Shown: piece after piece, positions 1 to 22,859 of the stretch | How the letters are laid out: every line of letters begins with the position of its first letter | Numbering within the stretch: the first letter of the stretch is position 1 | DNA from: an uncultured virus (IMG/VR IMGVR_UViG_3300029953_000002) | Taxonomy: Duplodnaviria; Heunggongvirae; Uroviricota; Caudoviricetes | DNA length: 41,879 nucleotides | Virus record (IMG/VR): IMGVR_UViG_3300029953_000002 | Strand: one strand, 5' to 3' | The notes under the pieces: model-generated | Told to the model about the DNA's origin: nothing | The model's database searches: none | The model's input: the letters and a program-made list of their open reading frames with translations, nothing else | Translations under genes and position numbers: made by a program

Positions 1-1138
1 ATCTAGCTAAAGATGTTTTATAGATTGGTTGACGTACTTGTGAGAAACTACTAGTCTTTACAATTCGATCGTTATTATAAAATTCCAAACATTTTTTATC
101 CCACGGCACACCAATATATTCTAATAAACGACGTGCTTCTTTTTCTGTATCAATCACTATGTTTTCGTAACTTACTTCATGTACAGTACCGGGTGGTAAT
201 ATAGATTCCCAATGTTTCATGTGTTTACGATAACGAACATAGAAACGACCTAACTCACCTTGATCGTAAGAAAAAGGTACATTGCGATCTTTAAACAATC
301 TCGTATAGCAAGAGAAGCATGAATCCATTGGATCTCTTGTAGCGTGAATAAATTTCGCATTTGGAAACATCAAATACATAATGCCTAAATAGAAACTATT
401 AGCTGGCATTTTATCGACAAGGTATTTTGTATTTGGAGCTACTTCCCACGCTTCGTTAATATAGTTTTCACCGATTAATCTAAATGTCTCTGGAGTGAAA
501 TCTAATACACTTTGTGGAAAGTATTTTGCAAATGATTTTTCTGGTAATTGATCAATTATTGTTTTACTCACAAGCGCTAATTCACCTGCTCCATGAATGC
601 TTGGAACAGTATCTAAAATTTGTTCAATTAACGTAGTACCTGAACGTGGCATTCCCATAATAAAAATTGGTACTCGCTCTTCATTACTTATTGGTCTACT
701 ACGTTTACTCATCCATTCTTTAGTGAATCCTTTTATTGTTCTTTTCAACAATAAATCTTCTGAGAAATCACTCCAGTTAACTTTTGTACGCGTTATGTTA
801 TTGCCGTTTGTATACGCTTCAAATGCGCCTGTGTAATTACCTGTGTCTTCTCGCATCTTACCAAGTGTAAACCAAAATTTTTCATGCAGTGGTGCTGGTA
901 AACCGGATATCTTTGATACTCGATCTTCCAACATCTGTACATGCGGATCATCTTTTTTATAAGAACGAAGTAATGAGATGCCGTAGTGCGCTTGAACGAA
1001 ACCAGGTTCTCTAGCTACGACATCGCTGTATGCAGAAATAGCCTCATCTAATTTTCCTTGATCTAATAACATATTACCGTAGTTAAATAGATCGTCAAGT
1101 GTTTCCCCAACAAACGATGGGCACGCAACATCACTCAT
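1..1138 (-). CDS. TPR-repeat sulfotransferase family protein (runs off the window start)
   Basis: Not in the ORF track; manual translation from ATG 1138 (AAGGA upstream): MSDVACPSF...LLDQGKLDEAISAYSDVVAREPGFVQAHYG (TPR) ... PIFIMGMPRSGTTLIEQIL (5'-PSB loop) ... VDKMPAN ... FPNAKFIHATRDPMDSCFSCY (3'-PB) ... YENIV ... SQVRQPIYKTS. Confidence 0.9.
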   Translation of the reverse strand, partial: MSDVACPSFVGETLDDLFNYGNMLLDQGKLDEAISAYSDVVAREPGFVQAHYGISLLRSYKKDDPHVQMLEDRVSKISGLPAPLHEKFWFTLGKMREDTGNYTGAFEAYTNGNNITRTKVNWSDFSEDLLLKRTIKGFTKEWMSKRSRPISNEERVPIFIMGMPRSGTTLIEQILDTVPSIHGAGELALVSKTIIDQLPEKSFAKYFPQSVLDFTPETFRLIGENYINEAWEVAPNTKYLVDKMPANSFYLGIMYLMFPNAKFIHATRDPMDSCFSCYTRLFKDRNVPFSYDQGELGRFYVRYRKHMKHWESILPPGTVHEVSYENIVIDTEKEARRLLEYIGVPWDKKCLEFYNNDRIVKTSSFSQVRQPIYKTSLAR

Positions 1139-1208
1139 TTAATTTCCTTAAAAAAAAAAATAACTGTTAGCTTACGAAAAAAAAATGTAAGCTAACATAA
1201 AACTATTA

Positions 1209-1883
1209 TTAACTAGCGGCAACAGGAGCCTGCGGTGTAAAAGTACTCTGCATATTTAATTCTGGAACACCAATCAATTTGCCATCCTGATCAAGATGAT
1301 GCACGATAGCACCAGTATGGTGAATTACAACAATGGCTTTTGGACCAAAACCTGGGCCAAACATAACTGGTTGTTTTAGAGTGCCGTTTGAGTCCATTCC
1401 AGCAAACACATTCAGTGGTAACGTACCCGCAGCCCAACCACTTAACACATTAAGTGTGTCGATTGCATTAGCTGTAATAAAATAACGAAGATCTTTTTTG
1501 ACTTCGTTTTTATTTTTATTATCAGTAGGTGGATTTAAAATATCTTTTAGTTTATTCTCATCATCTTGAATAACGATCGACATTTCCGTAAAAGGAATGA
1601 CGTTATGTCGAGCAGCGACTGGTGTTGGAGCCGGAGCAATGGCTGATACAATTTGAGATGGGACTGGCGTGTCTAGAACTGCCACAGGAGCTTCTACAAT
1701 AGGAGTCACTGGTGTTGTATCAACTGTATCTTGCGTGGCTGTAGACACGTTTCCTTCATTAGTATCAACAACTGTTCCTACTGCCGGGTCGGTTGTATTT
1801 GTTGTAGACACTTCAGGCAGAACTGGGTTATCTGCTGCTGTAGTAGTTTGACCAGACGGGAAAACTGTATTAGTAATAGACAT
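1209..1883 (-). CDS. Hypothetical protein with Thr/Pro/Val/Ala-rich low-complexity N-terminus
   Basis: 224-aa ORF, AAGGA RBS, hairpin downstream at ~1164-1196. Confidence 0.8.
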   Translation of the reverse strand: MSITNTVFPSGQTTTAADNPVLPEVSTTNTTDPAVGTVVDTNEGNVSTATQDTVDTTPVTPIVEAPVAVLDTPVPSQIVSAIAPAPTPVAARHNVIPFTEMSIVIQDDENKLKDILNPPTDNKNKNEVKKDLRYFITANAIDTLNVLSGWAAGTLPLNVFAGMDSNGTLKQPVMFGPGFGPKAIVVIHHTGAIVHHLDQDGKLIGVPELNMQSTFTPQAPVAAS

Positions 1884-1905
1884 TTCTTTTTCCTTTATAT
1901 TGAAT

Positions 1906-1963
1906 AATTTACACGGTTAAATTTTAGTGAGTTACTTCATAAACAAAGTTAACCGTGTAAATT
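1906..1963. repeat. 15-bp perfect inverted repeat with 28-nt spacer
   Basis: AATTTACACGGTTAA (1906-1920) / TTAACCGTGTAAATT (1949-1963). Confidence 0.8.
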
Positions 1964-2164
1964 TTATTTCATTTCGATAATTTCTAACACAGTAGTGATT
2001 GCTTTCCAGCGATGATTGGCAAAGTTCCAAATAGCTGAACCTTTTTTTAAATCTTTATTTTCGACATCGGATTTAGCTGTCTTAACGAAAGCACGGATAG
2101 CTTGTTCGACGGCGATTACTTCATCATTACTTAATTTTTTACCATTAACAACTATTGTCGTCAT
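1964..2164 (-). CDS. Hypothetical protein
   Basis: 66-aa ORF, GAGGA RBS, in operon. Confidence 0.7.
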   Translation of the reverse strand: MTTIVVNGKKLSNDEVIAVEQAIRAFVKTAKSDVENKDLKKGSAIWNFANHRWKAITTVLEIIEMK

Positions 2165-2177
2165 TCGCTGTTTCCTC

Positions 2178-2528
2178 TTATTTTGTTTCTGATTTCAGAG
2201 CAGGATTATTTACAAACTCATAAAAACAATTACGAAGGCCGTTTGTTATTAGTTTAATACTACTAATTTTATCTTCGGCTTCTTCTGTTATATCTCGTAT
2301 TTGTTTATTAGAAATCTCTTCTACTTCAATAATGAATTTTTCTGCTCTATCAGAAGAACATGGTAAATCTAACTGATCGTTATAAATAGCTTCGATTCTT
2401 ATTAGATTACCAACTAAATAAATACAAGTTACAGCAGGACGAAGCTTGTCTTCATGCTCAAAAGGTTTACCATTTGCATATACAACAGTGCCGTTTGGAC
2501 AAATAAAAAAGCCTTTTGGAAAATTCAT
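2178..2528 (-). CDS. Hypothetical protein
   Basis: 116-aa ORF with ATGA overlap to the upstream gene. Confidence 0.7.
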   Translation of the reverse strand: MNFPKGFFICPNGTVVYANGKPFEHEDKLRPAVTCIYLVGNLIRIEAIYNDQLDLPCSSDRAEKFIIEVEEISNKQIRDITEEAEDKISSIKLITNGLRNCFYEFVNNPALKSETK

Positions 2529-2857
2529 TGTTTTTTATCCCCAGAATAAACAGAACCATTAATTACCCACTGGGTCCGTTTTACTGGAAGCGGGATATGA
2601 AGAAGATGATTTATATACACACGCCCTCGTTCTGTTATTTCATATCTTGGTCTGTCTTGACCTATCGCGGCTTGAGAATAATCTTTAGGTTGTAGTAAGT
2701 TTGCTTTATGAACAAACTTACTTATAATGGATTCTTCTTGGCTGTCATTAAATAACGCGGGTGGGTAATCTGTTGTATCGTTATAATAACGCAACAGAAT
2801 AGTAATCTCGATTGAATTCAATATTCCATCTAGTGGTTTATCTGAACTAGTAGGCAT
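2525..2857 (-). CDS. Hypothetical protein, possible winged-helix domain
   Basis: 110 aa, AAGGA RBS; YEITERGRVY resembles the wHTH wing motif Y-x-[IL]-T-x-x-G. Confidence 0.65.
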   Translation of the reverse strand: MPTSSDKPLDGILNSIEITILLRYYNDTTDYPPALFNDSQEESIISKFVHKANLLQPKDYSQAAIGQDRPRYEITERGRVYINHLLHIPLPVKRTQWVINGSVYSGDKKQ

Positions 2858-2928
2858 AATTTTCCTTTGTTATTTAGAGGGCATTTCCCGTTCATGAATG
2901 GAGAGAATTTTCATTCTCTCCACTATCA

Positions 2929-4473
2929 TTATAAAACATTACTTATAAATACACTTTTATACGTCAATGCTCTATCTTCCAATAATACGCGTTTACGTTC
3001 ATGATACTCTATATGTTTAGCTATGTCTTCACAAACAAAATAAGCAAATGTTGGAGTTCGACCATCTTTCAATTCTCTTAAACGACCAAACCCTTGTATA
3101 TTAGCTTGACTACTAGTTACAGCTGTTGTCAATATAACAGTTGTCAATTGATCTATATCGACAGCAGTCCCAGCAGATTCTAATGTGGTGACTGAAATAT
3201 CTGCCTGAAGAAGGTTTTCAAATACGTCTTCTTCTACATATCGTCTAATGTCTAAATGTTTATATTTATCCTTAAGAAAATTAGTTAATAAGGTACACAT
3301 GTCTATAGATTTACAGTAGACGATAGCCTTATCGCCTTTCTTATAATTCTGTTTATACGTGCCTTCTAATGTTTGATATACTAATTCAAAATAATGTTTT
3401 GTTAAATCAAAATTCTTTAGAATACTTTGCTCAAACTGATGATGGGTATAGCTATGTGAATTGTATTCCTTTGTTCTTATTTTATCCGGATTCTTCACTT
3501 TGTAAATAACTGCCATACTAGCAATATATTTTTTATATGCCGGGCCTCTACAACGATACGCTGCGGGATAAGCAATTTCGTACATGTTATTCAAAAACGC
3601 ATCGTCTGACACTAGCGTGGCTGATAACGATATAGAATGCGGCACATTGGTATAAAGGTCTATCTTAAAATTCAAATGAAAATCTTGATGTACTTCGTCA
3701 ATTAAACGAATACCTACACCTAAGTGCTGGCAATAATTTTCAGGGAGACAAGCATACCCCATATCGAGAGTTTCTTCTCTGAATTTTTCATACAACTTAA
3801 TCCAATTCTGAAACGTCTTATTACTAATGATAATAACCTTTGTTTCAAGTTCACCAGTTTCAGCTTCTAATAATAATTCTTGTAGTTGATCTGAACCTCT
3901 AATTACTAATATATCTTCAAATGCGATATCGTAGGTTCTTCGCATATCTAGAACCCATTTTTCAATATACATTGGCTTTACTATAATGCAAGTACGTTCG
4001 CCAAGTATTTGCATCGCTCTCATTGAACAGAACGATTTACCTAATCCTGTAGCTAAATTTACAAATTTTAAAACAGGAGGATTATGGCTTACCAAATATT
4101 CAATTACTGGGATTTGATAATCCCTATCTTTCCATTCAGACTTAACATCAAACGTCACTTTTATAGGAACAGGTACAGGCTTTTGTACCTCTGCAACTAA
4201 ATCCCCAGTAAGATAATGATATTCTAAATGGCGTTTAAATTCTTCTAGTTGATTAATGTGAAAACGAAATTCACATCTATCCGCTGTAGACGCGGCAAAC
4301 ACTTTTAACGCGACACGTGAAAATGGACTGTTGTATGATGTTTTAACAATCCCGTATAAAACATATTTTCTTGCAAACGTTTCTATTGCTGCTCTAGCAC
4401 GAGGGGTAATGTTAGTCACGACAAAATTATGACTAGACATTACAATTGTTAATTCAGCCATACTGTAATCCAT
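2929..4473 (-). CDS. Superfamily 2 DExH helicase (phiKZ gp75-like)
   Basis: Q-motif RDYQ, Walker A ATGLGKS, DEVH, motif III SAT, motif VI QGFGRLR; syntenic after nvRNAP genes. Confidence 0.92.
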   Translation of the reverse strand: MDYSMAELTIVMSSHNFVVTNITPRARAAIETFARKYVLYGIVKTSYNSPFSRVALKVFAASTADRCEFRFHINQLEEFKRHLEYHYLTGDLVAEVQKPVPVPIKVTFDVKSEWKDRDYQIPVIEYLVSHNPPVLKFVNLATGLGKSFCSMRAMQILGERTCIIVKPMYIEKWVLDMRRTYDIAFEDILVIRGSDQLQELLLEAETGELETKVIIISNKTFQNWIKLYEKFREETLDMGYACLPENYCQHLGVGIRLIDEVHQDFHLNFKIDLYTNVPHSISLSATLVSDDAFLNNMYEIAYPAAYRCRGPAYKKYIASMAVIYKVKNPDKIRTKEYNSHSYTHHQFEQSILKNFDLTKHYFELVYQTLEGTYKQNYKKGDKAIVYCKSIDMCTLLTNFLKDKYKHLDIRRYVEEDVFENLLQADISVTTLESAGTAVDIDQLTTVILTTAVTSSQANIQGFGRLRELKDGRTPTFAYFVCEDIAKHIEYHERKRVLLEDRALTYKSVFISNVL

Positions 4474-4525: not shown

Positions 4526-6550
4526 CTAGCTTATGTCTCCTAATACTTCATATGGTAATAACAATGCGTCAAAAATGTGATTTGGTCTATTTGTATTAAT
4601 AAAACTCATCGGTTTAATAAGCACGTCCCGATGTCCTTCATAGGCCATTGCTGTTGATAGACTGCGCTGTTGCATCGACATCTTAGTTACTCCAAGCGCT
4701 GATCTTGTCCAAGGCTTTGGTAAACTATAATCATTATTATCAGCAGAAACAATCATAATCCCGTACAACACTACTTCAAGTACTGCTAGATTAACTACCA
4801 GTTTTTCATTAACTAAATCGTACAATTCTTGAAGTACATATGCCGGTGATACATTCTTATCTCGTTCCTGCATTTTATCAACAGAAGATTCCAACATAGC
4901 AGCTATGGCGCCACTATGGTCAGACATGTTGATATGTTTTAATGGCAGTGTTAAAAACGGTTTAGTCCAATCCCAATTTGACATATCAAAATAGTAATCA
5001 CCACCAGCATCGATTGTCCATCGGTTTTCTCGTATTAGTTTAAGCATATCTAAAGTCATGCTAGCTAAACGTCTACCTACTGAAACGTCAATTCCAATTG
5101 GATCGGCATCATCTATTTTAATACTAATTTTAGATAACTCAGATACTCGACCGATGTTCAAGTCATCAATATTTTTTATTTCTATTACATCTGTTAAGTT
5201 CTTGGCGTCGTCTTCTAAGATTATGAATTGTACTTTCTTTCCTTTTAGATTATCCGCTAGCCAATATGAATTTTCATCAGAAGGATCAATTCTTAAATAT
5301 TTACGATGTTCACTTTCTAGAATAATCCCTTCTACAGCAGAGCTACCGTCAAGATGCTTTAACGATAGTACGTTCTGCGATGATTTTGAAGCAAGGGCAG
5401 TGCAACATACTTGACCTATGTTAGTGTCTTTCGGAACAGATAACGACAGTTGACCAAAACAAACACTGCAAATACCATACGGATCAGGATGTCTACAATG
5501 TATAACTGATCGAAGTTTTAATGTTCTCCCAATTAATTCATGACTGTCTGCATGAATGGTCTTTAATACACCGTCGTCATCCATGTAGTTTTTTCCAATC
5601 AGCTGCTTCAAATCTCCTTGGCGAACAGAGCCTTTTCTATTTTCTGTTTTTCTTACATTCCAATATACATATTCAGTTGACCCGCAATCACCAGTGTGTA
5701 AATTACAAACGATCTGCGACATCAGTTGCAGACGTCTAGAAAAGTACTCGGCTTGTTGTAATGGAGTTTTACTAAATGACAGACTCTTTGCAGCTGACCG
5801 AGATTCAATTAAAGAATCATGCAACAAACGTATTCCTTGTGCAAATCCACGAACAATTGGGTGCCTAAATACATTTGAATCAACATCGGTCAAAACACCT
5901 CTAGCACTAACGCATTGTTGCACTTGTCCCATGCTTACTAAATTAGACCTAGATGCTTTTGATATAGCGTTATTAGGTAATTCTTTACCGCTCATCAAAA
6001 CACTCTTTACAATTTTGTGCGTGTCTTCTATATCCTTCTGTCCTGGATTTGGGAGTTCTTGAAGTCTGGTATTAGCTTCGCGGATTGTTGGGTTATTTAA
6101 TACCTCGATGAAGTCTGTTATATCTAGCGATACGACATATTCTTCTAAACGATAGGATAAATCGTTATACATCGCATTCGTATAACGATAAATGCGTTCG
6201 CATAACTTATCCCTAAAATCATACTCAAATTCAATATTTGATTTATCCTCAGGATGTGTTTCGAAATGGTTATCATACACGGACCACATTGCATTGCCGA
6301 GTAACTCTAAATGAGTATCAGAACCAAGGCGCTTACTATCACCCAATATATTGGTAAGATGGTGTTTTGGCAATAAAGGCGTATCTTGAAATTCTCGATG
6401 AAAATCCCATGAATATGAACTATAGAGCGTTGCCCTATCATTCGTGCTAACGATTTCTCCGTTATCGAATACAAGATCAAAAGACCCTGTTAATATATCC
6501 CATAACTCTTTAGTTGTATATTTAAGTAACGTTCTTGCTAATATTTTCAT
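4526..6550 (-). CDS. Non-virion RNA polymerase beta' C-terminal subunit (phiKZ gp74-like)
   Basis: Bridge-helix-like ESRSAAKSL...AEYFSRRLQL, DCGS, ICSVCFG Zn site, trigger-loop-like NIGQ...SQNVLSLKH. Confidence 0.9.
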   Translation of the reverse strand: MKILARTLLKYTTKELWDILTGSFDLVFDNGEIVSTNDRATLYSSYSWDFHREFQDTPLLPKHHLTNILGDSKRLGSDTHLELLGNAMWSVYDNHFETHPEDKSNIEFEYDFRDKLCERIYRYTNAMYNDLSYRLEEYVVSLDITDFIEVLNNPTIREANTRLQELPNPGQKDIEDTHKIVKSVLMSGKELPNNAISKASRSNLVSMGQVQQCVSARGVLTDVDSNVFRHPIVRGFAQGIRLLHDSLIESRSAAKSLSFSKTPLQQAEYFSRRLQLMSQIVCNLHTGDCGSTEYVYWNVRKTENRKGSVRQGDLKQLIGKNYMDDDGVLKTIHADSHELIGRTLKLRSVIHCRHPDPYGICSVCFGQLSLSVPKDTNIGQVCCTALASKSSQNVLSLKHLDGSSAVEGIILESEHRKYLRIDPSDENSYWLADNLKGKKVQFIILEDDAKNLTDVIEIKNIDDLNIGRVSELSKISIKIDDADPIGIDVSVGRRLASMTLDMLKLIRENRWTIDAGGDYYFDMSNWDWTKPFLTLPLKHINMSDHSGAIAAMLESSVDKMQERDKNVSPAYVLQELYDLVNEKLVVNLAVLEVVLYGIMIVSADNNDYSLPKPWTRSALGVTKMSMQQRSLSTAMAYEGHRDVLIKPMSFINTNRPNHIFDALLLPYEVLGDIS

Positions 6551-18709: not shown

Positions 18710-18937
18710 TTACTGCACAAAAAGTAATTCTGACATTCGTTGAAACTTAACCGGATCAACAACACTGTCGTCGCTATGAATATACGAAGCCAATGTGCTG
18801 ACAACTGGTTTCGGCATCGATAAATTTCGCGATACCATACGTGGGTTATTCAAATCAAAAGTTGATTTATGCGGAGCTAGATTCTTTAATTGTTCCGTTA
18901 TACATGTATCGATTGATAATGTTGCGTTTAACTGATC
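18710..18937 (-). CDS. nvRNAP beta' catalytic subunit, exon 3
   Basis: Open frame DQLNATLSIDTCITEQLKNLAPHKSTFDLNNPRMVSRNLSMPKPVVSTLASYIHSDDSVVDPVKFQRMSELLFVQ*; supplies the last Asp of NADFDGD. Confidence 0.9.
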   Translation of the reverse strand, partial: DQLNATLSIDTCITEQLKNLAPHKSTFDLNNPRMVSRNLSMPKPVVSTLASYIHSDDSVVDPVKFQRMSELLFVQ

Positions 18938-19232
18938 CTTTTGTCCATCTAATTCGTTAGATTAGATCGGTATGCTGAATACCTGCTTTATGTTTCCATA
19001 AAGAACTGACTATATCTTCTATTCGTAATGAATAGCCTTCCGTTTCGGAATCACTTGATTCCTACTCGCTTACGCGATAGTCGATGAACCTTCTCCTGTA
19101 CGGAGCTTGGCTGCTGATTGCCCAATCTCTATTCTTTTAAAACCTTGGCTTTGTCTTTCGACTCGCAGTGGTGAATAAAGCTCTCAGGGGTTTCCAGACA
19201 GTTAAAAAGGTTTTTAGACAGCAATTTTGTTT
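18938..19232 (-). mobile_element. Group I intron 2 (295 nt, no homing endonuclease ORF)
   Basis: Exon ends in U, intron ends in G; P1 GACGGU/GCUGUC with U.G pair; core AAUCAGCAGCCAAGC, AAGGUUCAUCGACUAU, GAAGAUAUAGUC (P7). Confidence 0.92.
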
Positions 19233-19252
19233 ACCGTCAAAATCTGCATTAA
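19233..19252 (-). CDS. nvRNAP beta' catalytic subunit, 20-nt micro-exon 2
   Basis: TT AAT GCA GAT TTT GAC GGT = (F)NADFDG. Confidence 0.92.
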
Positions 19253-19679
19253 CTTATTGTCCAATTAGTTCGTTACACTAACCCGGTATGTTGTACCTGC
19301 TATATATCTCTATATAGAACAGACTATATCTTCATCCTCAGCTTTATCTGTTTGGATGTCCACTGCTTCGGAGCCACTAGCTCCTACTCCCATTACAGGA
19401 TAGTCGTTGAACCTTCATCATTCTTAAATGGTTACCAATTTACATGGTAACGATTAGGCTCTTTCATTTAAGTTAAGATGCTTGGCTGCTGATTGTCTCT
19501 ACCAGATTATTTTCAAACATTGACGTATGTGTTTTCACACTCCGCTTTAGTTAATCTGTCTAACAAGAGTTTCCAGCAATTCAATGGATTTACATTTATC
19601 ATTACTGATAAACTGGCCTGTATAAATATTATTTATAGTAATAGTATATTATTTTACTATAGAATTACTTATGTTCCTA
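19253..19679 (-). mobile_element. Group I intron 1 (427 nt, no homing endonuclease ORF)
   Basis: Exon ends GGCU, intron ends ...AAUAAG; core GAAUUGCUGGAAA, AAUCAGCAGCCAAGC, AAGGUUCAACGACUAU, GAAGAUAUAGUC. Confidence 0.9.
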
Positions 19680-20904
19680 AGCCTACTACTGACAAAATTG
19701 AAAGTGATACAGTGGGGATGTTCGGATCAGTTTTTATTTTCGTAACAAACATTGCTTGTGCTGACCCGCGTTCCAAACTCGGATTTCTTTGAAATATCAC
19801 AGGTATGCCCTTGTATGGACATTCATTAATTAACAACTGAAACAGTTCATCTAACAGTGGATGATACTTTTGTGAATGTTCGTTTAGAAATGCTTTTGCA
19901 CCATTGGGAGTAAATCCTCTACGCAATAGTTTATTCGTTAAATGAATACCTAATACGGATACTCCAATACCCCACGGGACATGCAATTCATCATAATCGT
20001 GATTCGCTGTAAGCGATGAAATCACTGCTCTGAAACTAAAATGTGATCTAGTTCCAAATACATGTTTTCTAAATATTCCTTCTTTTTTAGCTAATGTAAA
20101 ACGATATAAATCGTCATAAAAATCAGACAGTTGATAAATTGCTTTAATCGTCCTATTTTGTTTTGTTCTAACGGAATGATTTGCCAATAAATTATCAATG
20201 CTACACATGGTGCGGATCGCGTCCACTGCTCCTGTTACAATTGGATCAACATATGTTCCTACGGTTGTTTCCTCAATAACCAATAGGGAACGATTAGGCA
20301 ATGGCAGATAGTCAGAGAACACACAAGATCTTTGCTCTCTCAACAATTGTTCTAAAGGTTCTTCTACGCCTTTCTTTGCTCTGAATCCTTTTACATTAAA
20401 TAACGATGCGATAATACTATCAAAGTTATCAACAAAATTATTATAACCTCGTTGGATTCCTAGCTCTTGTACAGTTTCCATAATTGCCGGAACTTTGACA
20501 GCTGGGTGATATGTACTGTCAGCTATCCATCGAATAATGTCGTATCCAGATTTTGAAAACTTTTCGGATAACATTGTTAACACAATTGGATTGATAAGTT
20601 TACTCACTCCTTCTGGCGCTCTAATCCAAACTAACGGCTCAAGATCTTGTTCTAAAGGTGCCTTTACGAATGTTCCGCATTGTTTACACTTCACACCAAC
20701 GTTATGTTCTCCCTTTATTTCCTGGCATTCGCAAGTAGGCAAATTACTAAGAAGATCGGTATTGTATTTGGTGTAAATCATCGCATTAAAAGCTTCTTTA
20801 TCTATTTCAGAACCTTCTGATACGTTGTTAATAATGATTGGTTCTTTAGTGCTATATTTTGAAAACAGTTCATCAAAGTTTACGAGTTCCAGTGAAATTC
20901 CTAT
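19680..20904 (-). CDS. nvRNAP beta' catalytic subunit (phiKZ gp55/56.1-like), exon 1
   Basis: Zn ribbon CEC...CKQC, KKEGIFRKHVFGTRSHFSFRAVIS, QRNPSL; frame open upstream to ATA 20904 behind AGGAG; spliced CDS 1225+20+228 = 1473 nt (490 aa). Confidence 0.9.
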
Positions 20905-20996: not shown

Positions 20997-22859
20997 TTAC
21001 TGCCAGCGGCTGAAACCACGATTTGCACCAGACGGTGTCGCGTTTTGATTATAACCACTGCGGAAGATACCGCTCGATTCAGGGGTCAACAAAGTATGAC
21101 CCGAGAACTGTGAGCGAGCACGTTCGTAATTACCAAGATCCTGATACGAGTATACAGGCTTCAGAACCAAACCAGCTTCTTGGCAACCCTTAACTAGTGC
21201 GTTAATGAAACCGACTTCAAACGTGACGCGGCGAGCGTAGCCTGTGAATACCGCGTTATTGCAAATTGATTGGATGATACGTTTCCGTTCATACAAGCGT
21301 TTCGGCAGAGGGATATGTGTGCTTGCAAAAGAATCAGACCACAACTTAATTGCACCTGGGTCTTGTGCGCCGACACAATTCAACACTGCCAAATAATCAA
21401 TATCGCGAATGTCTGCACGTTCACCACGAGAGTTCGTGTAATGACCCAGATGGATACGATTGTATTCATCAGTTGCGACACGGCCCTTTGGATCAAAATA
21501 CTTTACAAAGTTACCATTCGTAAGCTCGTTAGCGGCTTTAAGAATAGCGATATTTGCTTGGGTATTCCCAGCGGCAGCTGCCGAGAATACTTCATTGAAC
21601 CAGGTCTGAGCACCGCATTCCGGCACATCCAAGGACACCACAAGACCAGGACGAATTGTTGCCTTAACCAACTGCCCGAGATTTTCTGGTTTAAACTTAT
21701 CGGCATGTGTGTCAATGCGTTGACCAACGCCACTTGGATCATTGCTAAAGTTAACTTCGATGCCAATAGCACCGATATCACGGAAGTCTACGTCGCCAGA
21801 AGGAAAATCCCTTGGACGGAAACCTTGAACCCAAGCGTTGTTTTCGCCGAGGCCAACGACTGGAACTAGCGCCAATAATTGCGCTGGAATAGTAAGCAGT
21901 TCGGTTGATTCCATCGTTGTTGCAACAAACCGAGCAGCGTAACGCTGAAAAGATTGTTGTGTTGGATCTGGAATACCGTACAAGTTTTGTGGCGCAACGA
22001 TAGGGTCCCAGAAGATATCCAGGAAACCACCAATTCGCGCGATAGGTGCTTCACGTCCAGCATCTTGCTGTTGTGTTTGTTGCGACTGCACTGGTGCAGC
22101 GGTAAAATCCAATACGATATCACTGCGCAATGGCGCACCGACCGCATCTTGTTGTTGTGGCATTGCAAACTGTGTTCGCACTGACAAAGTGGAATCATTC
22201 TTAGCGTTTGCAATATTGATATCTTCAAAGTTCTTGCTATTAATTTCAAGCTCAGAAGTACATGCAAAAATAGCATTTGCAATCAATACGTGCAATGCCG
22301 ATTTGTCTTCAACGTTAAAGTCCTTAGGAACAACACAAGCACCTGCGTTACGTGGTGTGTCTTGCGGAAACAACCGCTGAACGTAACCAAGCACAACACC
22401 CTTCAAAGTATCGTTGCAGGAATCACCAGCAGTATAGAGAATCTCAACGGATTGACCGTTAATCATTTCTGGCTTAGGTGTGCGAATATCCGCAGACGCT
22501 TCGAGCAACAACGAGTGATACGCAACACCCAACAATGGGTTCTGCTTATCACGAACAGCGAGAATCAAAATAGAAATCGACAAGTTTGGTGTTTGTTCTT
22601 TTTCAATTGGAACCAAATTGATTTCAAAACTCTTATCGGCTTTTTCTGTGATCATCTCAGTCATTGCTTTGGTGATCTTGTTCAATGCTTCCGATGCCTG
22701 TGTGCGACTGAATGCAGGCCGTGACAACTTGCGCAGATTGGTGAAGCTGTACCCAGTGCTATCGGCTTTGGTTTGATGATCACGATTAGGTGCAAAACTA
22801 CCAGTAGGGTTGTTTTGAACTTCTGCACCATTGCCAGTACTTTCGTCTTTAATAGCCAT
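20997..22859 (-). CDS. chmA: Chimallin, major phage nuclear shell protein (phiKZ gp54-like)
   Basis: 620 aa directly upstream of the gp55-like RNAP gene; flexible N- and C-terminal tails; relatively GC-rich coding sequence; own early motif and terminator. Confidence 0.85.
   Translation of the reverse strand: MAIKDESTGNGAEVQNNPTGSFAPNRDHQTKADSTGYSFTNLRKLSRPAFSRTQASEALNKITKAMTEMITEKADKSFEINLVPIEKEQTPNLSISILILAVRDKQNPLLGVAYHSLLLEASADIRTPKPEMINGQSVEILYTAGDSCNDTLKGVVLGYVQRLFPQDTPRNAGACVVPKDFNVEDKSALHVLIANAIFACTSELEINSKNFEDINIANAKNDSTLSVRTQFAMPQQQDAVGAPLRSDIVLDFTAAPVQSQQTQQQDAGREAPIARIGGFLDIFWDPIVAPQNLYGIPDPTQQSFQRYAARFVATTMESTELLTIPAQLLALVPVVGLGENNAWVQGFRPRDFPSGDVDFRDIGAIGIEVNFSNDPSGVGQRIDTHADKFKPENLGQLVKATIRPGLVVSLDVPECGAQTWFNEVFSAAAAGNTQANIAILKAANELTNGNFVKYFDPKGRVATDEYNRIHLGHYTNSRGERADIRDIDYLAVLNCVGAQDPGAIKLWSDSFASTHIPLPKRLYERKRIIQSICNNAVFTGYARRVTFEVGFINALVKGCQEAGLVLKPVYSYQDLGNYERARSQFSGHTLLTPESSGIFRSGYNQNATPSGANRGFSRWQ

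Follow-up and report, generated by a model that had tools for sequence, protein, structure and literature searches.

How a phage gene can specify a working RNA polymerase when its open reading frame (ORF) ends just short of the catalytic codons is the question raised by the locus described here. The locus occupies positions 20904-18710, on the minus strand, of a 41,879-nt stretch of DNA from an uncultured member of the Caudoviricetes (IMG/VR record IMGVR_UViG_3300029953_000002); we refer to this whole stretch as the window. The gene is predicted to encode a subunit of the phage non-virion RNA polymerase (nvRNAP). The initial annotation, made from the letters of the window, proposed that the active site is encoded on a 20-nt micro-exon between two tandem group I introns. 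In our assessment the answer is very probably that two separate group I introns without ORFs, stacked as selfish elements at an insertion hot spot, interrupt the gene and are both removed with the micro-exon kept.

Read without splicing, the minus-strand ORF ends at a TAA three codons beyond the residues ...SVVG, just before the catalytic motif, as the initial annotation had stated. Exon 1 (20904-19680) ends in a T at 19680 that pairs with a G in P1 of the first intron, a 427-nt group I intron (intron 1, 19679-19253) that closes with its omega-G at 19253. The 20-nt micro-exon (19252-19233) encodes (F)NADFDG and itself ends in T. It is followed by the 295-nt intron 2 (19232-18938, omega-G at 18938), a group I intron that lacks P2, and by exon 3 (18937-18710), whose first codon is GAT. 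Intron 1 is inserted in phase 1 of the codon before the Asn of the motif and intron 2 at NxDFDG|D, and each of the four boundaries conforms to the U(-1) and omega-G rules. Joining the three exons produced a single open frame of 490 codons, counted from 20904. The exact boundaries and continuous frame proposed earlier thus agree with the sequence, and removing both introns restores the host reading frame.

The micro-exon and exon 3 are both supported by an alignment to gp381 of Burkholderia phage FLC9, which has no introns; the joined product aligned with gp381 without gaps across either junction. Exon 1 matched the phrog_2987 profile ('RNA polymerase beta subunit') with an E-value of 6.5e-138, protein residues 2-406 falling on positions 2-412 of 478, and exon 3 fell on positions 422-477. 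Because the profile is left uncovered between 412 and 422, the stretch absent from exons 1 and 3 is the part supplied by the micro-exon. Only part of the statement that the micro-exon carries the active site can stand: two of the three catalytic Asp residues are encoded there, and the third is the first codon (GAT) of exon 3. Skipping the micro-exon would, as had been pointed out, shift the reading frame of the gene.

Both introns were recovered by the Rfam group I model RF00028, at 19634-19300 (89.2 bits) and 19242-18986 (83.4 bits) on the minus strand, against a gathering score of 50 bits. Each match covered model positions 1-253 of 253 and neither was truncated. We found no minus-strand ORF of 40 aa or longer, and hence no intron-encoded endonuclease, inside intron 1 or intron 2, which bears out their description as ORF-less group I introns.

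Each intron has its own internal guide sequence. That of intron 1, AGGCC (19615-19619, minus strand), forms P1 with GGCU|U at 19683-19679, and the minimum-free-energy fold of 19692-19590 placed the splice-site U 19680 opposite G 19618 (position 75), with an AT-rich P1 extension followed by a P2 hairpin at 19613-19594. The guide of intron 2, UUGCUGUC (19217-19224, minus strand), pairs with GACGGU|AA at 19238-19231 in both the Rfam alignment and the fold (fold z-score -2.24). The P1 helix of intron 2 thus draws on the final six bases of the micro-exon, GACGGU, while intron 1 needs only its first bases as a 3' exon. Because intron 1 uses the 5' end of the micro-exon and intron 2 its 3' end, the two uses do not overlap. 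The sequence, the Rfam alignment and the fold thus agree with the earlier proposal that this small exon serves as 3' exon for one ribozyme and P1 partner for the other.

If the gene is expressed through splicing, joined exons should be found in RNA, and the initial annotation had named junction-spanning RNA as a check on its model. We aligned metatranscriptome contigs from three studies (X13, X14 and X15) and contigs of one DNA run from a separate study (X5) to the locus; the RNA data are assembled contigs rather than reads, and rare variants drop out of contigs. Two RNA contigs bridged the gene. Record 11 of X14 (330 nt) placed letters 1-216 on 19894-19679 and letters 236-330 on 18937-18843, and record 16 of X15 (662 nt) placed letters 1-71 on 19749-19679 and letters 91-528 on 18937-18500. 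Exactly 19 letters lay between the exon 1 and exon 3 pieces in both. Because the first T of the micro-exon is the same letter as the T at 19679, an mRNA that keeps the 20-nt exon predicts 19 unplaced letters and an mRNA that skips it predicts none.

The RNA contigs also contained excised intron 1. X14 and X15 each yielded a 456-nt contig that circularly permutes the intron, with a joint between 19678 and 19253. In X15 the pieces of this contig overlap by 30 bases, which we took to be the word overlap of the assembler; on that assumption the molecule is a 426-nt circle in which omega-G is joined to the second base of the intron and the first base is missing. Group I introns circularize with the loss of a few 5' bases. 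Neither a joined exon form nor a circle joint was present among the six aligned records of DNA run X5. The introns were kept there: X5 contigs covered 19054-19539, from intron 2 over the micro-exon into intron 1, and crossed the boundary of exon 3 and intron 2. The circle joint, found in two RNA runs and absent from the DNA run, needs an active ribozyme. The contig bridges and the intron 1 circle show that introns 1 and 2 are spliced in vivo, and the 19 letters fit retention of the micro-exon.

Two further joints fell within the introns. One, from 19287 to 19135 with 204 letters between (intron pieces 19135-19175 and 19257-19287), was present in RNA runs and in DNA run X5, and the other, from 19417 to 19105 with 12 letters between, in RNA run X15 only. 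We considered both as products of the polymerase gene and rejected them, as they look like a mosaic relative of the introns at another locus or in another phage.

Several observations weigh against the interpretation that both introns splice and the micro-exon is retained. The 19 intervening letters were matched to the micro-exon by length alone. We saw no circular or free intron 2 among the RNA contigs. Record 3 of X13 spans the boundary of exon 3 and intron 2, so that run also contains either unspliced precursor or DNA. The P1 of intron 1 is short (four exon base pairs plus one), and its fold (z-score -1.40) was indistinguishable from those of shuffled sequences. For the related gene of phage phiKZ, an intron carrying gp56 was predicted in 2002, and the excerpt of a study using ONT-cappable-seq reports no evidence of its splicing (PMC10914365). 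Finally, the single DNA run came from a study other than those of the RNA runs, so an intronless strain could mimic a spliced contig.

This last point bears on the idea that the spliced-looking contigs derive from a co-occurring intronless strain and that the introns of the window are dead insertions in a pseudogene. Metagenomes mix strains, the DNA and RNA runs stem from different samples, and the window belongs to a 114-kb viral record estimated to be 43% complete, beyond which a second gene copy could lie. Such a strain would not explain the intron 1 joint, however, which appeared in two RNA runs and not in X5. The exon pieces of the RNA contigs contained no letters differing from the window, both introns gave full-length, high-scoring Rfam matches, and the joined form was missing from all six X5 records. 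An intact copy of the gene elsewhere, which the initial annotation had regarded as evidence against splicing at this locus, was not found in the 114-kb record (again, about 43% of the genome). We consider dead introns beside a co-occurring intronless strain a very unlikely explanation.

Skipping of the micro-exon would yield a second, frameshifted and truncated product by alternative splicing. It has precedents in Twort orf142 and Coxiella 23S rRNA (PMC10136302, excerpt) and in the SIOphi terminase (PMC11878797, excerpt), and introns 1 and 2 share a similar 3' end. Both bridging contigs keep the 19 extra letters, though, and no direct joint of exon 1 to exon 3 was listed among the contigs of the three RNA runs. 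Introns 1 and 2 are, moreover, 61-63% identical and have different guides, and different guide sequences suppressed exon skipping in an engineering study (PMC10136302, excerpt). Regular skipping at this locus therefore seems to us quite unlikely.

With splicing of both introns as the preferred reading, the next question is where the introns came from. Rfam alignments placed an insertion of 29-33 nt between P7 and P3' in both. An insertion at this position (P7.1/P7.2 hairpins) is what we take to be the hallmark of subgroup IA, and by this feature both introns are putative members of that subgroup. At 61-63% identity they are not the result of a recent duplication. Intron 1 is nearer (66-70%) to a third group I intron, which lies outside the window in the DNA polymerase gene (phrog_3011) of the same record (C1:31657-34964, locus L002; RF00028, 90.1 bits), than it is to intron 2. 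The third intron splits its gene just before DVSASYPNG, carries in its 5' part a 445-aa ORF for an HNH_3 / I-HmuI-like endonuclease, and has a long module in common with each of the two introns, a different one in each case.

The only other HNH_3 match in the 114-kb record was at C1:47809-47964 (minus strand, outside the window), within a 351-aa open frame beside which no group I intron was detected; this may be a free-standing homing endonuclease. Neither GIY-YIG nor PF01844 had a match in the record. A megablast search of the whole locus against phages retrieved only a core piece of intron 2, 74-128 nt long, in Pseudomonas phages; the collection searched does not include the phage of the window. 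In a tree of intron cores, clustering by genome was about as frequent as clustering by insertion site. The underlying MAFFT alignment was rough and the tree carried no support values, and it was used as a hint only.

We then asked how common such arrangements are at this motif. An earlier single-protein query of IMG/VR had returned five loci, with no intron in the three that were scanned with Rfam. A scan with alignment A1 retrieved 80 loci, which are contigs rather than independent lineages, though the seven tandem cases described below differ in sequence. The gene was uninterrupted through the motif in 56 of these. The other 24 were flagged as split, comprising four truncated contigs, one uninterrupted gene with a divergent tail and 19 remaining as intron-bearing. 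Rfam was run on 17 of the 19, and 16 had matches, for a total of 27 group I matches; locus L040, split at N|A, had no hit at the gathering score. The eight loci most similar to the gene of the window (L018-L025, 56-63% identity) had no intron in the gene.

Seven of the 80 loci carry tandem introns at the motif, separated by micro-exons of 9-15 nt. Splice sites in these relatives were placed by sequence rules and frame restoration. Two introns flank a 9-nt micro-exon in L033 and L056 and a 12-nt micro-exon in L039 and L079, and L093 has three introns and a micro-exon of 9 nt. In L034 (4629-6149) and L055 (4683-6228) the motif is spelled piecewise by two micro-exons (12 and 9 nt, and 15 and 12 nt, respectively) among four introns, two of which in L055 had no Rfam hit at the gathering score. 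The open frame of every exon model for the seven loci restores NAD[FY]DGD, and the boundaries follow U|...G| with the exception of one 3' end. That exception is the first intron of L079, which ends at 5386 in C rather than G in the sole frame-restoring model; possible explanations are an error in the sequence, a boundary that is shifted, or a genuine exception.

Insertion in these tandem loci is at NA|D, NAD|F, G|D and D|Q. Where the site is G|D, guide and exon change together, with GACGGU accompanied by GCCGUC or GCUGUC, and GAUGGU in L034 by GCCAUC. In none of the surveyed relatives did we see an intron at the site of intron 1 of the window (phase 1 of the codon preceding Asn); an intron of L034 lies 1 nt away. 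The initial annotation had called the arrangement unusual, a view weakened by these seven homologues and by the 23-nt exon of Twort orf142 (PMC10136302, excerpt).

Among cultured phages, a tblastn search with FLC9 gp381 retrieved 310 phage records, 253 of which align with 80% or more of the protein as a single piece, and we inspected seven cultured-phage records whose match stops near the motif. In phiKZ (NC_004629) one intron, containing the HNH gene gp56, follows the Asn codon (N|A), 5 nt downstream of the site of intron 1. Serratia phage 2050HW (MF285618) has one ORF-less intron of 296 nt at exactly the site of intron 2, and its polymerase gene is annotated as two 'RpoBC' coding sequences (CDS). 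Phage W10-2 has an ORF-bearing intron after the motif (NADFDGD|Q); fnug has the same intron and, at RN|PS, a further one. An apparent split at NAD|F in Vibrio phage C-ZP2022 is a probable case only, since no Rfam hit was obtained and the record contains Ns. Erwinia phage Caitlin (L013) and Aeromonas phage D6 (L016) were rejected as split genes; both are uninterrupted, with divergent tails. Taken over the window, phiKZ, Serratia 2050HW, W10-2, fnug, C-ZP2022 and the IMG/VR loci, we count seven or more insertion sites no farther than about 25 nt from the motif.

The annotation of phiKZ itself is affected. In locus L001 (NC_004629), at 667-3505, the annotated gp55 CDS overruns the 5' splice site by 18 nt (six codons) into the intron, and the small CDS 'PHIKZ056.1' corresponds to most of exon 2. 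Judged from these sequences, the mature phiKZ subunit should be gp55 joined to the exon that begins ADFDGD.

The survey also bears on what the introns might do for the phage. The initial annotation had suggested that splicing gates nvRNAP production, with the two introns acting as a checkpoint or timer that allows active polymerase only once both ribozymes have folded and spliced. Failed splicing or a skipped micro-exon would indeed leave no catalytic subunit. Word depth was higher for intron 1 contigs than for exon contigs in X13, X14 and X15, but contig depth cannot rank the parts of a gene and is unusable as a measure of expression. Sandegren and Sjoberg reportedly found in 2007 (cited in PMC10914365) that splicing of T4 introns depends on translation and growth state, which would count in favor of gating. 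Against this, the eight most similar homologues have no intron in the gene, 56 of the 80 loci are uninterrupted, and both intron number (one to four) and exact sites differ between lineages. Because number and sites vary and the nearest homologues are intronless, the pattern is one of selfish insertion rather than of a selected regulator. The gating proposal found no support here, and we regard it as very unlikely.

A different function would be protective armor, in which stacked introns were selected because they break up the sites of competitors' endonucleases in NADFDGD-coding DNA. The initial annotation had proposed that the occupied sites could protect against competitor homing endonucleases, which is plausible in view of what is known of homing. 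Endonuclease-bearing introns do occur at neighboring sites (phiKZ gp56 at N|A, and those of W10-2 and fnug at NADFDGD|Q), phiKZ is harmed in co-infection by an intron endonuclease of PhiPA3 (PMC11620839; PMC12908238, both in excerpt), and occupancy of several sites recurs in seven of the 80 loci. Immunity of intron-plus alleles is, however, a generic by-product of any insertion, and most relatives live without introns. Armor as the selected function thus appears unlikely to us. Immunity of the interrupted DNA to endonucleases that recognize the intact sequence is in our analysis a likely side effect, one that could matter in co-infection (PMC11620839, excerpt).

Stacking of two selfish introns remains our preferred account, and it suggests the following mechanism. 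Each intron would find its own 5' splice site by its own guide, GGCU with GGCC in intron 1 and GACGGU with GCUGUC in intron 2. Excision of both with retention of the micro-exon would produce an mRNA for a normal subunit with an intact NADFDGD loop, and the arrangement fits a cost to the host that consists of splicing only. The history of the site we infer from the survey: the DNA encoding the catalytic loop would be a landing hot spot in this phage family, invaded repeatedly by mobile introns that were most likely carried by HNH endonucleases like that in the DNA polymerase intron, the genes for which would later have been lost. As a side effect, the interrupted sequence would no longer be a target for endonucleases that recognize the intact one. 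Possible routes to the 20-nt spacing are successive homing, reverse splicing guided by a 4-6-nt match, or an exchange of modules between resident introns.

A more speculative extension, which we hold to be doubtful, is that the roughly 25 nt encoding the Mg-binding loop are a family-wide pad where introns stack, and that stacks are kept because they blunt competitors' intron endonucleases in co-infection. In the relatives with 9-nt micro-exons the downstream P1 takes six of the nine bases, which would call for ordered or cooperative splicing. If the extension were true, an arms race would be taking place inside active-site codons, and self-splicing ribozymes would have a splicing regime that has not yet been studied.

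The locus is of interest as a phage RNA polymerase active site assembled from three exon pieces by two ribozymes, with support from RNA. Because a nucleus-forming phage transcribes inside a protein shell, away from ribosomes, translation cannot help this splicing. The survey outweighs the single case, in that the codons of the catalytic loop appear to be an intron hot spot with at least seven sites, and several lineages have micro-exons of 9-15 nt. Genes of this kind look truncated just before NADFDGD, as does the annotated phiKZ gp55, which should serve as a warning for annotators. To ribozyme biochemists, pairs of group I introns that share a tiny exon offer natural test cases.

The identity of the gene and of its phage rests on neighbors as well as on the coding sequence. 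The chimallin gene (phage nuclear shell protein; 20997-22859, minus strand; PF25677, E-value 7.6e-41; phrog_4795, E-value 2.5e-90) lies directly upstream of the polymerase gene, the order also found for gp54 and gp55 of phiKZ. From the phrog_2987 match, the restored NADFDGD and the chimallin neighbor, the interrupted gene is identified by sequence as that of the chimallivirus nvRNAP β'-N subunit, of the phiKZ gp55 family. The closest cultured relative is Burkholderia phage FLC9, whose uninterrupted gp381 (495 aa) is 61% identical to exon 1. The DNA and RNA runs containing the locus are labeled as peat or permafrost metagenomes, and the source is an uncultured nucleus-forming jumbo phage from peat and permafrost.

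The 5' end of the gene lacks an evident start codon. Reading on the minus strand from an in-frame TAA (20925-20923), the first ATG is reached only at 20781, and the interval holds no GTG or TTG either. The 41 residues encoded 5' of that ATG can nonetheless be aligned with the N-terminal end of FLC9 gp381 and, from its position 2 onward, with the phrog_2987 profile. An ATA at 20904, with an AGGAG 6 nt before it, is aligned with the annotated GTG start of gp381. Translation probably starts at this non-canonical ATA, or at a nearby ATC or ATT.

Two features flank the coding region. At the 3' end, the polymerase stop TAA (18712-18710) overlaps the ATG (18710-18708) of the next gene, whose 216-aa product belongs to phrog_3254 and has no assigned function; the TAATG overlap suggests translational coupling of the two genes. 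Between the chimallin and polymerase genes, at about 20968-20935 (minus strand), we noticed by eye what looks like an intrinsic terminator, an inverted repeat poor in GC with a run of T after it.

Several known systems resemble the locus in part. Within its own gene family, phiKZ (gp55/gp56/gp56.1) has an intron that interrupts the NADFDGD codons of the same gene, just downstream of chimallin, and its core is 90.8% identical to that of intron 2 over 74 nt and 67% over the whole core. It differs in having one intron that carries an HNH ORF, whereas the window has two ORF-less introns at other sites. The intron of Serratia phage vB_SmaM_2050HW shares with intron 2 an identical site, a similar length (296 versus 295 nt), the lack of an ORF and a P1 on GACGGU; in contrast, it has no partner intron, shares about 62% identity with intron 2 and uses the guide GCCGUC instead of GCUGUC. 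The IMG/VR tandem alleles (L033, L034, L039, L055, L056, L079 and L093) share the gene and the motif and have two to four group I introns, but their micro-exons are shorter (9, 12 or 15 nt versus 20 nt) and their splicing is predicted from DNA sequence.

Introns at such positions have been discussed in terms of both targeting and competition. In the textbook account of such hot spots, introns that bear endonucleases are aimed at conserved codons of active sites, from which an imprecise loss would be lethal (PMC12908238, excerpt). An intron endonuclease of PhiPA3 acts on phiKZ by cutting its RNA polymerase gene (PMC11620839; PMC12908238, both in excerpt). The gp210 intron of PhiPA3 (Birkholz et al. 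2024, PMC11620839) resembles the introns of the window in that it is a group I intron within an RNA polymerase gene of a jumbo phage, and it offers a framework of competition between phages. It differs in that the gene is that of the virion RNA polymerase and in that it carries an active HNH endonuclease, whereas the introns of the window carry none. Heavy intron loads in the Jug phages were checked by metatranscriptomes (PMC12880540, excerpt). In the open-access literature we found no description of recurrent stacking at NADFDGD or of 9-nt micro-exons in phage genes.

Tiny exons between group I introns have been described in other settings. In orf142 of Staphylococcus phage Twort, introns 2 and 3 are described as highly similar and enclose a 23-nt exon, which may be retained or skipped (Landthaler and Shub 1999, cited in PMC10136302, excerpt). 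As in the window, two group I introns in a phage protein gene flank a tiny exon (23 nt versus 20 nt here) that serves both ribozymes. The gene and the phage family are different, and whereas Twort combines similar introns with exon skipping, the introns of the window are diverged, have unlike guides and were seen in exon-inclusion contigs only. A 34-nt exon between tandem group I introns of Coxiella 23S rRNA is skipped (PMC10136302, excerpt), as is an internal exon of the SIOphi terminase gene, and in phiNIT1 a small exon between two introns was revealed by cDNA reads (both PMC11878797, excerpt). In placozoan mitochondrial cox1, a 1-nt micro-exon between two group IB introns keeps a catalytically essential codon, as shown by RNA-seq (PMC5436844). 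That case differs in its organelle, its IB introns and its 1-nt exon, which places the 20 nt found here far above the lower limit for an exon between group I introns. Tandem group I introns around a tiny exon are therefore already known, and the window adds a further case.

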